This document shows positions 18,677 to 25,755 of a DNA stretch of 36,293 nucleotides, one piece after another. A model generated the notes under the pieces. The model did not search any database, was not told the DNA's origin, and worked only from the letters and a program-made list of their open reading frames with translations. Position numbers and translations under genes: made by a program. The DNA is from Leucoraja ocellata (taxonomy: Eukaryota). Numbering within the stretch: the first letter of the stretch is position 1; every line of letters begins with the position of its first letter. The stretch lies in the NCBI GenBank assembly GCA_036785375.1, contig JAWMAR010000622.1:806001-842293 (forward strand), given 5' to 3'.

Positions 18677-19014
18677 AAAAAAACAATGATTGATTTTTGC
18701 ATCTTATGTATTAAACAAGCTTTTCTGATCGCTAGAACAAAGTTATTTAAATTTAAGGGTGGTGCAGTGGTAGAGCCGCTACCTCAGGGCATCAGATAAC
18801 GGAGTTCGATTCTGACCTCGGGTACTGTCTCTGTGGAGTTTGCAAGTTAGTGGGTAGGTTTCCTCCGGGTGCTCCGGTTACACCATTGTAGGTTAATTGC
18901 CCCTCAGTAAATTGCCCCTACTGTGTACGGGGTGGGGTGGAAGTCGGATAACACAGAACTAGCATTTGAAGGCACTGGGCATGTACTTGCTCGAGTTTGG
19001 AAGGATGAGGGAGG
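18677..19014 (+). repeat. Left copy of 338-bp direct repeat flanking the L1 (putative giant TSD)
   Basis: Identical by eye to 25418-25755 (offset 6741). Confidence 0.9.
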
Positions 19015-19216
19015 AGTGAACCACTCCGGTGGCTGCTATGAAGCAGTGAAGGCAGCTGCACTGAGCTCTCCTCCAGACAAATCGTGTTTAAAGTCGACTC
19101 CCATGCCAGGAACGAGTTAAAAATTCTTATCAGGTTTGCTGAACGTCAAGGGTACTGACTCCATCAAACGATACTGGTGGTTTTGGGATTTAAAACGATC
19201 TTATCGAAAAAACTGG

Positions 19217-20314
19217 ATGAGAAAGAGAAGAGGTCAGAGAGGACCCAAGAAAACTACAATCAGTCTCCAGCTCCAAAAAGCTCTGGATGAGCTTGAAACT
19301 ACTCCTGAACTCTCATTTGAAAGTTTGGAAGAGGAGCTGGAACCTCAACAACCTACAAGCGATATGGCTGCGAGAAGTGATACAAAGGAGAAAGAAATGA
19401 AAAGCTGGGAAGAAACGGTAAGAGCTAATATTCTTAAAGAAATTAGTAAAGATCTTCAGCAGCAATTTGCCAAAATGAATTCTACAATTCAGAATAACTT
19501 CTCCACTATGGAGGGCAATCTTTCTATGAAAATTGATAAGAGCTGTGGCGAAGTAAAAGAGCTTTATGTAGCCCTGAAACAGCAGTTTAAAGATTTGGAG
19601 TCCAACACAGCGAAAGAGATGGAAAGTATGCGGAGAGAGTATAACAACAAACACGACATTCTGCTGAAGCAATTAACAGACACGGAAAGATTGATGGAAG
19701 AAATGGAGGGTGAGATGGAACAGATGAGCCAAGAGATAACAGGTCTGAAAAAACAACACGATACGAATTGGCAATTAACGAATAAATTGAATGAGAAATG
19801 TCAAGATTTAGAGGCCAGGTCTAGGAGACAAAATCTGAGACTTGTAGGAATTAAAGAGGGTGCGGAACACAGCCTTCAAATGCGTGATTTCATTACTAAT
19901 CTACTTAAAGATGTTTTCAAACTTCCTGAAAAACCAAAGATAGATCTGGCTCATCGAGTGGGTCGCCTCCAAAAACACGATAATGCTAAACCAAGGCAAA
20001 TTATTGTAAAGTTTCTAGATATTTCAACTGTGGAAACTCTATTAAAGAAGATAAAATATGGAGAAAATCTTACATTCGCTGATAATATCGTAAGATTCTA
20101 CAGGGATTACCCTCGGGAAATTCTGGAAAAAAGACGCGAGTTTAAAACTGCAAGCAGTGTTTTATATGGACATTCTGAAGTTCGTTATGGCGTGATCTAT
20201 CCAGCAAAAATGCTAATTACTTTTAAGGGCAAGCAACGCTCATTCACCGACCCGGACGCTGCCTGCAAATACGCCAAGGAGATATTAAACAAAATTCAAT
20301 CAGGATCAGATTAA
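19217..20314 (+). CDS. L1 ORF1p (coiled coil + RRM + CTD), 365 aa from first ATG
   Basis: Long heptad coiled coil, then DLEARSRRQNLRLVGIKEG, IDLAHRVG, KPRQIIVKF, FYRDYP, and YGVIYPAKMLITFKG, all characteristic L1 ORF1 motifs. Confidence 0.93.
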   Translation: MRKRRGQRGPKKTTISLQLQKALDELETTPELSFESLEEELEPQQPTSDMAARSDTKEKEMKSWEETVRANILKEISKDLQQQFAKMNSTIQNNFSTMEGNLSMKIDKSCGEVKELYVALKQQFKDLESNTAKEMESMRREYNNKHDILLKQLTDTERLMEEMEGEMEQMSQEITGLKKQHDTNWQLTNKLNEKCQDLEARSRRQNLRLVGIKEGAEHSLQMRDFITNLLKDVFKLPEKPKIDLAHRVGRLQKHDNAKPRQIIVKFLDISTVETLLKKIKYGENLTFADNIVRFYRDYPREILEKRREFKTASSVLYGHSEVRYGVIYPAKMLITFKGKQRSFTDPDAACKYAKEILNKIQSGSD

Positions 20315-21237
20315 TTGACAATTTGTCAAGAAACCGTTTTTTCTGTTCAAATTAAACCACTCGAAACCTTCAGACAACTACCAGACAGTCTTATCTGCAA
20401 AGAATGTGCTATTTAATAACACGGCCGAACTAATCTTCTGAACTGAAAGCACATAGGAACTTTCAAGGCTGCAAGCACATCATCTCTGAAGCACGGAAAA
20501 CTATGAGACTGTTGCTTTTTGAAATGGCCATGATAAGAGGCTTCTGTTTCACACTATATGACCTATTACTTACATATATAACTAACTAACTAATTAACCA
20601 ATTACGCACAATATACTCAACCAACGTTAAAGGCGTAATGTCCTATACTAACACAATTAACTATATAGCAAGAAGGGTGGGGGAGGTTAGACATATATTT
20701 TAATTACTAAATACTAATAATGAATTAACTAACATACAGGTAAATGAAAAGTGTAATTTTTGATGAGGTATTTTAACCCATCATTATTTTTATTTTAAGC
20801 CAAATCTTCTAACTTACCTTTTATTTTATTCTATTTTAAACTGCTCAGCGATGACCTGATATGATAAGTTTGGTAACAATTAGAGGGAACCGACTAACGT
20901 TGGGTCAAATTCTAACAGGGGGATAGGGCCCAGTGCATAATTTCATCGACGGAGGTCAATTTTAAATCAAACCTAGCTACCTTAGGTGGCTTTTTTGTAA
21001 TTTATCGCTTTTTTGATAAATTACATTCACTTTTTTTGTTTATTCACAATTATGTGTTGCAGGATTTAAGCATTTTTATGTACACTTTATTTTATGTTTT
21101 TCTCTTCCCCTCAATTATGTTTAATAATGTCAGGAGATGTAGAACTACTGTAGAAATTATGAAGGACAACTCTGGATTCGGGACTCTGAGGTACTTGGCT
21201 GCATCACATGAAGCATACAGTCTGGTAATAATAGCCA

Positions 21238-24200: not shown

Positions 24201-25047
24201 GAAAGTAGGGGACATGTATGAAGTGGGCAAACTGTTATCATTTCAACAATTAAAATTAAAATTTAAATTGAAGGATAATCAATATTTTAAATATATACAG
24301 GTATGTGACTTTATGAAGAAACATACACATAGATTTCAAACTATATTTTTAGATCCTTTAGAAGAAGCAATGAATATTAAGGCTGATTCACAAAAATTAA
24401 TATCATACTTTTATAATAATATATTAAATAGAGAATCACCCTCAACAGAAGCATTAAGGGAAGATTGGGAACAAGAGCTAATGACAAAGATCTCGAAGGA
24501 TAGATGGGAAAAATATTTGATGAACACACATAACTGTTCTATTAATGCAAGACACAATTTAATTCAATTCAAATTATTACATAGACTATATTATTCAAAA
24601 ACGAGGTTGAACAAATTTTATCCAAACGTCTCTCCCAGATGCGATAAATGTTTGTTTCAAAACGCTAATATAACACACTCATTTGTTGGATGTACAAAGT
24701 TGAATAAATTTTGGAGTGATATATTTGATATATTTACAAAGATTTTCAAGTCAAGAATAGAACCCAAAACGGAATGGATTATATTTGGAATAATAGGAGA
24801 AGATACCAATTTAAATAAAGATCAAAATGTTTTTTTTAATTATGGGTTAATAATTGGAAAGAAATTGATACTTAAATTTTGGAAAAGTACAACCACACCA
24901 ACTGTTAAAATGTGGATTAGGAATATGATGGACATAGCACGCCTTGAAGAAATGAGACTCCGACTAATAGATAAATATGACCAATTCTTAAAGAGTTGGT
25001 CTCCTTTCATCGACTTTTTGGAATCATGTGATGCAGCGGTGCCGTAA
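21238..25047 (+). CDS. L1 ORF2p: APE endonuclease + reverse transcriptase + CCHC domain, 1269 aa
   Basis: SWNIRG, LQETH, NIYAPN, GGDFN, SRIDY, SDHSP (EN); PGPDG, LDAEKAFD, RQGCALSP, LYADD, YLGI (RT); CDKC-x8-H-x4-C. Uninterrupted. Confidence 0.97.
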   Translation: MQDNSRTNTGGLTFCSWNIRGANEPIKRGKILAQLKSLNMDIAFLQETHLKQQTQIRLRANWIGQTYYSSFTSKARGTAIIIRKGIPFKLKNSISDKEGRYVIVTGEIYNTPLTMINIYAPNFDNPQFFRKIIDLIAEHNFQNIIMGGDFNCVIDPYLDKSIKLGKRLVKTKTCEFLNTYIKNNNIADVWRIANPSGREYSFYSSVHKTYSRIDYFLLDTKLIPYTNKPSYHNSIISDHSPLTFILKIEGMPSIKPFWRFNAHILNNPQGYEYIKEQTKLFFETNDTPGISAPLLWETFKAYIRGVIISYQSFQNKENKRELQLIEQKIKLLELDNATDPTINKHNKITLLKYKVNRILSARVIRVFQITKQAHFEFGDKPHKLLARQLKQREKEKTITKIKSDNGELLTLPKDINKRFAQFYHNLYTSKIKTDVSKITNFLDNCKLPKLGSLEQEQLGARITSEEIKQIINSLKNGKTPGPDGFSNEFYKRFQESIVPRLFNLYTQAYTENKLPETLAEATITLIPKKDKDLEEPGSYRAISLLNTDQKILAKILARRLNNYINNLINTDQTGFIPKRQSFNNLRRLFNIMYSHKKDNEDISVVTLDAEKAFDQVEWQYLYKVLQKFNMGENFIRWIKLLYDRPTARILTNNTLSPKFYLSRGNRQGCALSPLLFALMIEPLAERIRNHPNIHGYNSKDSKNKISLYADDILLYITNTQTSIPTLLTLIEEFGSFSGYRINWNKSEIMSLKPQDSRHLLKFPFKIATEKFKYLGIQITRRHKSLFSANFIPLLNKLNDTIKFWKTLPLSLIGRINAIKMTFLPQLIYLFQAIPIYIPKYFFKKLDSTITNFIWDYRTHRIQRKHLCKSKEVGGLSLPNFIYYYWAVHIKNIIYWLDSSTQQLEWIRMEKEECYPHDIGTILLSPIKLNSITYKKNPIIHNIIRIWKQIKASLKLNNLSVLTPLLNNPAFKPSLIDNTYQQWDRLGIRKVGDMYEVGKLLSFQQLKLKFKLKDNQYFKYIQVCDFMKKHTHRFQTIFLDPLEEAMNIKADSQKLISYFYNNILNRESPSTEALREDWEQELMTKISKDRWEKYLMNTHNCSINARHNLIQFKLLHRLYYSKTRLNKFYPNVSPRCDKCLFQNANITHSFVGCTKLNKFWSDIFDIFTKIFKSRIEPKTEWIIFGIIGEDTNLNKDQNVFFNYGLIIGKKLILKFWKSTTTPTVKMWIRNMMDIARLEEMRLRLIDKYDQFLKSWSPFIDFLESCDAAVP

Positions 25048-25417
25048 GGATTGCCGATTTCAGTTCATGACGCGGATAGATCTACATCTCCGAATACAGA
25101 TTTGAAAAATTCCCTTTTAAGGGGCCTTCTCTTCTATTTCTACTCTCCTCTTTCTCTCTTCCTTTTTTATTTTTTATATACACACTTCACGTTTTTCTAC
25201 TCTCTGCCATCTATTTTTCCACTTTTTCCCCTTTCTATTGCTTTCTTTTTCTTGATCTGCTTACTTTTTTCTTATAACATAAAACTAGAGGTTGTACATA
25301 GAATGGATTACGGTATTACATAGTTGGCACCTAAAATTAGGCGCCACTGTACTGTTTTGTGCTGTATTAACTTCTAATAAAATAAACAAAAAAAAAAAAA
25401 AAAAACAAAAAAAAAAA

Positions 25418-25755
25418 AAAAAAACAATGATTGATTTTTGCATCTTATGTATTAAACAAGCTTTTCTGATCGCTAGAACAAAGTTATTTAAATTTAAGGG
25501 TGGTGCAGTGGTAGAGCCGCTACCTCAGGGCATCAGATAACGGAGTTCGATTCTGACCTCGGGTACTGTCTCTGTGGAGTTTGCAAGTTAGTGGGTAGGT
25601 TTCCTCCGGGTGCTCCGGTTACACCATTGTAGGTTAATTGCCCCTCAGTAAATTGCCCCTACTGTGTACGGGGTGGGGTGGAAGTCGGATAACACAGAAC
25701 TAGCATTTGAAGGCACTGGGCATGTACTTGCTCGAGTTTGGAAGGATGAGGGAGG
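25418..25755 (+). repeat. Right copy of 338-bp direct repeat, continuous with the downstream pre-insertion sequence
   Basis: Identical to 18677-19014. Contains a SINE head and the start of a CR1 fragment that continues uninterrupted to ~26073. Confidence 0.9.

Follow-up and report, generated by a model that had tools for sequence, protein, structure and literature searches.

A skate L1 between direct repeats of about 340 bp: a probable large target-site duplication around an apparently full-length element in a natural genome

How the second strand is cut and joined during L1 (LINE-1) insertion is still an open question. Target-site duplications (TSDs) longer than 100 bp have so far been ascribed to HeLa cells, to cells with defective repair and to tumours, and most of the elements concerned are truncated. 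Here we describe an L1 of 6.4 kb from Leucoraja ocellata that has two intact open reading frames (ORF1 and ORF2) and lies between two copies of the same host segment. It is carried by the 36,293 nt of contig JAWMAR010000622.1 (assembly GCA_036785375.1, positions 806,001–842,293, forward strand) that were analysed as a whole and are called the window; coordinates count from its first letter. Judging by the arrangement of the sequence, it is likely that the locus arose by a single full-length L1 insertion through target-primed reverse transcription, which duplicated ∼ 340 bp (338–346 bp) of host DNA.

In HeLa cells TSDs > 100 bp accompany at most 10% of L1 inserts, and in XPA-, XPC- and XPD-deficient cells 4/7, 21/23 and 22/28 inserts respectively, or 47/58 for these nucleotide excision repair (NER)-deficient cells together (Servant et al., PMC5223499). 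The large-TSD inserts described there are all 5′-truncated, and the authors propose a distant nick as well as loss of the insert by recombination between the TSDs. A zebrafish LINE in wild-type DT40 cells gave a 1228-bp TSD in 1 of 25 inserts (Suzuki et al., PMC2666801). L1-linked tandem duplications of 1–10 kb have been described as large TSDs arising via break-induced replication (10.1101/2024.12.14.628481), and sister-chromatid bridging has been reported in a tumour (Rodriguez-Martin et al., PMC7058536). With the HeLa and NER-deficient inserts the skate locus has in common the TSD > 100 bp and the possibility of TSD–TSD excision; however, those inserts were engineered, in culture and, in PMC5223499, 5′-truncated, whereas the skate L1 is apparently full-length and sits in a natural genome. 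The duplications in tumours and L1-induced clones (PMC7058536; 10.1101/2024.12.14.628481) share its segment–L1–segment topology and an endonuclease motif at the 3′ breakpoint, but are somatic and measure 1–10 kb, up to 22.6 Mb, against 0.35 kb for the skate case, which would presumably be inherited. HERV-K (HML-2) TSDs of 111–250 bp (PMC5488345) are likewise very long flanking duplications of natural insertions, but that system is retroviral and integrase-based, whereas the skate L1 would have used target-primed reverse transcription.

Positions 18677–19014 and 25418–25755 are identical (0/338 mismatches), and exact extension ends at these limits; after this pair, the longest exact repeat of the window measures 92 bp and links dispersed repeat copies. 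Past this core there is one mismatch (19015 A versus 25756 G), then seven more matching bases, and BLASTN pairs the copies over 346 bp at 99.7% identity (345/346). At least seven matches in these eight positions would arise by chance with P = 4e-4 (equal base frequencies). The first seven bases of the repeat, an A7 run, are continuous with the L1 tail, A18-C-A18 (25388–25424), as the initial annotation had noticed. Its 5′ boundary is therefore ambiguous by up to 7 bp, and its length is 331–338 bp for the perfect core or 339–346 bp with the mismatch included. The L1 5′ motif, CACTCCGGTG, starts at 19022, precisely at the end of the extended target match. Because the extended match ends where this motif starts, we read the duplication as probably 346 bp with one substitution and the L1 as full-length from 19023; the eight nucleotides past the core may instead belong to the L1, attached through imperfect microhomology. 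The same annotation had called the duplication 338 bp and apparently perfect, which holds on alignment of the core, but probably misses its last 8 bp and the one mismatch beside the 5′ junction. In 11 related repeat copies compared by eye the mismatch column reads G in five, A in one, T in one and a gap in four, and G is weakly favoured as the original base.

In the repeat we distinguish ∼ 80 bp of unique, AT-rich DNA, a 5′ portion of what we take, from features of its sequence, to be a degenerate short interspersed element (SINE), and the first 59 bp of a fragment that is presumably CR1-like on the same grounds. In the right copy the CR1-like piece continues across 25755/56 and the SINE resumes at 26074, after a second ACTAGC, and we therefore regard the right copy as native and the left as cut by the L1. 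Matches of the right-copy region to other window loci cross 25755/56 in 11 of 25 cases, and an uninterrupted SINE copy near 2731–2810 has a single ACTAGC. The repeat is a segment of host DNA bounded by the L1 ends, as in a large TSD, and at 338–346 bp lies outside the canonical range of about 5–30 bp. The CR1-like fragment (25699–26079) has an ordinary short 6-bp TSD of its own within the SINE, at the same locus as the giant one. The A-box and B-box-like motifs of the SINE (18758–18813) now stand ∼ 210–265 bp upstream of the L1 5′ end; an effect on L1 transcription is raised only as a possibility.

The element follows the short-5′ untranslated region (UTR), long-spacer type of fish and frog LINE-1 (PMC5381506) in its ORF1/ORF2 layout and poly(A) tail, its 194-bp 5′ UTR and 923-bp spacer, and a 5′ motif resembling GACTTCCGGTG; it departs from that type in an ORF2 at 53% identity to the best of 120 listed relatives and a TSD ∼ 20 times the usual length. 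For the L1 5′ extremity, Boissinot and Sookdeo (PMC5381506) list GACTTCCGGTG (lizard clade 1) and GGACTTCCGGTT (zebrafish), alongside fish 5′ UTRs of 113–267 bp and spacers of 257–1032 bp. UTR and spacer lengths of the skate L1 thus fit a full-length fish or frog L1, and its motif is two edits from the lizard terminus. With the motif at the junction and a 5′ UTR in range the 5′ terminus may be complete, the reference being a lizard consensus and not that of its own family. Both reading frames are open and match their human counterparts, in agreement with the earlier call of an intact L1. ORF1 is of L1 type, matching human LINE-1 ORF1p in the PDB over residues 161–347 (E 3e-9); in Pfam it reaches Transposase_22 at E 0.09 only, below the cut-off. 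It is identical at 362/365 residues to a protein (P0137) encoded on an independent 1349-bp contig, and a near-identical ORF1 sequence therefore exists beyond this assembly. ORF2 matches human ORF2p over residues 11–1256 (E 4e-183), has the Pfam domains expected of the L1 clade (Exo_endo_phos 15–239, RVT_1 526–778 and a weak zf-RVT) and contains 12/12 of the catalytic and structural motifs searched. Among the 120 listed of 588 homologues, named ones are mostly teleost and the closest is that at 53%. An exact look-up found neither protein in the protein collection. The intact ORFs and the 99% identical ORF1 relative are indirect signs that the L1 may be mobile.

The window's only A or T runs of at least 12 are those of the L1 tail. 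The internal C of the tail mimics the A-run-then-C start of the target; the A18-C-A18 structure may go back to re-priming or slippage, to the tail of the donor or to consensus building. No further copy of this L1 was found in the window by tblastn. A possible old relic at 14369–14519 is 68% similar to the L1 3′ end and continues into an A-rich tail; it has no TSD recognisable by eye, and the similarity may be partly low-complexity. ARAGORN found no tRNA in the window, and Rfam gave no match in 18000–26700.

The anatomy of the insertion is clear: both junctions lie at the biological ends of the L1, the target is an A-run, the element ends in a poly(A) tail and the host repeat is nested. The A7 run at 18677 is the sole run of at least four A in 18600–19030 (runs of at least five A number 33 in the remaining ∼ 28 kb of the window), so the 5′ junction offers no A-run at which an ordinary short TSD could start. 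On the bottom strand the target reads TTTTTTT/GT, which deviates from the TTTT/AA consensus; like other L1 insertions, this one pairs a T-rich target with a 3′ poly(A) tail. Following established L1 biology, the T7 run of the bottom strand would be where ORF2p placed its nick and the poly(A) tail primed, with cDNA synthesis running over the whole L1 RNA. The 5′ end of the cDNA would then have been joined ∼ 346 bp downstream instead of ∼ 15 bp. This joining might have followed a distant top-strand nick with strand displacement and fill-in, or else break-induced replication or sister-chromatid bridging; all of these routes end in an identical product, and the locus does not distinguish between them. 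The joining synthesis could plausibly have introduced, as an error, the G-to-A change that lies 8 nt from the 5′ junction. The top strand is G-rich immediately ahead of the 5′ joining point (native 25738–25763; G4Hunter-type score 1.44, top 2% of window positions), a lead only, found post hoc. The initial annotation saw in the locus an unusual integration mechanism, should other family members behave alike; however, large TSDs and the distal-nick and break-induced-replication models are already published, and no evidence bears on the family-wide part. Most likely, the large TSD came from a sporadic repair event and is no trait of the family. By recombining with each other the two repeats could bring back the empty site; such excision, also proposed in that annotation, is possible but not new (PMC5223499).

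Several points weigh against a large TSD. Among human insertions (disease, tumour, polymorphic and reference) TSDs hardly ever reach 30 bp, and the large-TSD candidates checked in one amplified-DNA dataset were chimeras in 10/10 cases (Evrony et al., PMC4805530), a result that casts doubt on the long TSDs which Upton et al. (PMC4398972) had reported. Full-length HeLa inserts had TSDs of 10–17 bp in 6/6 cases (Kojima, PMC2912911, citing the HeLa study), and the accounts in 10.1101/522623 and PMC8934628 give ordinary TSDs only. A full-length case in a natural genome thus has a low prior, yet one that is partly unmeasured, since Kojima's genome survey gathered TSDs of 5–30 bp only (PMC2912911). 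In the literature searched, mostly without subscription papers and supplements, no title described an L1 from a natural genome whose TSD exceeds 100 bp, or dealt with the TSDs of skate L1s. The 5′ motif is a weak match taken alone, since the window holds 19 two-edit matches to the lizard motif; position, not score, therefore carries the argument for the 5′ end. ORF2 departs at 4 of 123 columns invariant among 43 homologues > 1240 aa (P0001–P0044, one dropped), the top of the homologues' own range of 0–4, which neither shows nor excludes decay. Finally, the locus is known from one assembled sequence alone, and five N runs (139–329 bp, two only 26 bases apart), which are either assembly gaps or masking, lie in the window outside 18000–26500 and may mean a fragmented assembly.

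That last point bears on an assembly artefact, in which 5′ and 3′ junctions belonging to separate molecules would have been united across the repetitive L1 body, whether by a chimera, by a gap fill or from two alleles or paralogues that each carry an insertion. A false TSD produced by two independent junctions has precedent (PMC4805530). Close homologues of the neighbouring SLAM-like gene number several in each skate species, which points to a paralogous cluster, and the equality of the two A18 runs may stem from consensus building. However, 18000–26500 contains no N, both junctions fall at natural L1 ends with A18 in place of A7 at the 3′ junction, and tblastn finds a single such L1 in the window. 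An artefact would require either two insertions within 346 bp, with no A-run near 19000–19022 to serve the normal TSD of the second, or a false join at the exact end of the element, and we consider it unlikely. A duplication older or younger than the L1 would produce the same picture if the L1 had entered blunt into a very young tandem or segmental duplication or had removed DNA across it, or if two L1 alleles 346 bp apart had recombined. Such models have been discussed for 111–450 bp repeats around HERV-K (PMC5488345); the single mismatch could be a paralogue difference and the setting may be a gene cluster. Yet the duplication would need to be bounded exactly by the A-run and the L1 5′ terminus, with no 10–20 bp TSD left over, and the window holds no other near-identical host duplication; this origin is quite unlikely. 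The locus superficially resembles a 6.4-kb retroelement between long direct repeats, and the repeat might belong to the element, as an LTR-like (long terminal repeat) end or a segment transduced with the L1. We rejected this as extremely improbable on the nested host anatomy: the repeat is half of a degenerate SINE plus the start of a CR1-like fragment and runs into native sequence on the right, the poly(A) tail stands between it and the 3′ UTR, and the proteins are L1 ORF1p and ORF2p with no integrase in Pfam, unlike an LTR element. The initial annotation had likewise read the repeat as host DNA, and its proposal of a giant TSD stands as the best reading, with copies identical at 345/346 positions whose boundaries fall at the poly(A) tail on one side and the L1 5′ motif on the other.

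The one-sided 95% upper bound on divergence between the copies is 0.9% (0/338) or 1.4% (1/346). At the epaulette shark mutation rate of 7e-10 per base per generation (PMC10587355) this sets an age ceiling of 6–10 million generations; the intact ORFs limit divergence from the parent element to 0.6–1.5%, depending on the indel rate assumed. Because long pairs among the other repeat copies of the window reach only ∼ 95% identity at best, the insertion is young relative to neighbouring repeats. The description 'very recent', given at first, goes beyond these bounds at the slow shark rate.

Downstream of the L1 lies a SLAM-like (CD2 family) gene, whose ATG is 2.2 kb beyond the right repeat end on the same strand as the L1 (Table 1). 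Its immunoglobulin V-set exon is 87–94% identical to SLAM-like proteins of Leucoraja, Amblyraja and Rhinoraja and 52–67% to those of other batoids, which places the host among the skates. An L1 inside this gene was rejected for the coding exons, which are all downstream of the L1; an effect of the L1 on its expression is possible. CR1-like 3′ fragments occur at six further loci (4397–4878, 9585–10015, 11106–11613, 13604–14232, 16295–16928 and 31743–32119) with ∼ 89–95% mutual identity, a denser and younger group than the fragment inside the repeat. Self-comparison shows an imperfect self-complementary stretch at 12856–13193 (66% over ∼ 340 bp), possibly an old inverted-repeat element.

Table 1. 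Features of the L1 locus and its surroundings (window coordinates).
Feature	Position	Strand	Remarks
Left copy of host segment	18677..19022	+	perfect core 18677–19014, mismatch 19015, then 7 matching bases
A7 run, inferred first-strand endonuclease site	18677..18683	+	bottom strand 5′-TTTTTTT/GTAT
5′ part of degenerate SINE in left copy	18758..18963	+	A-box, B-box-like motifs (18758, 18803)
First 59 bp of nested CR1-like fragment, cut by L1 5′ end	18964..19022	+	
L1 5′ UTR	19023..19216	+	194 bp, 45% GC, 8 CpG; starts (C)ACTCCGGTG
L1 ORF1	19217..20314	+	365 aa; human LINE-1 ORF1p match over residues 161–347
Inter-ORF spacer	20315..21237	+	923 bp
L1 ORF2	21238..25047	+	1269 aa; endonuclease, reverse transcriptase, C-terminal CCHC; without stop or frameshift
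L1 3′ UTR	25048..25387	+	340 bp; AATAAA right before tail
Poly(A) tail	25388..25417	+	A18-C-A11, leading into A7 of right copy
Right copy of host segment	25418..25763	+	runs on into native downstream sequence
Entire nested CR1-like fragment	25705..26073	+	own 6-bp ACTAGC repeat at 25699, 26074
SLAM-like (CD2 family) gene	27950–31039, probable exon ∼ 32430	+	leader, V-set, C2-type, transmembrane exons

By comparison with the published cases the skate L1 appears to work like the large-TSD insertions known from cell culture and tumours; less usual is the full-length element with a giant TSD in a natural genome. A single locus does not establish a new mechanism. It is very unlikely that TSDs hundreds of bases long are the rule in this L1 family or in the skate germline and so yield LTR-like, excisable full-length L1s; were it true, such TSDs would have been overlooked by surveys with a TSD length ceiling, and clean loss could help to hold L1 copy number low in non-mammalian vertebrates. 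If the single insertion with a large TSD is confirmed, genomes would deserve a new survey with no 30-bp TSD ceiling, and the locus would be a natural substrate on which to test scarless L1 loss. A full-length case in a wild vertebrate would then mean that the long-TSD route operates in vivo too.

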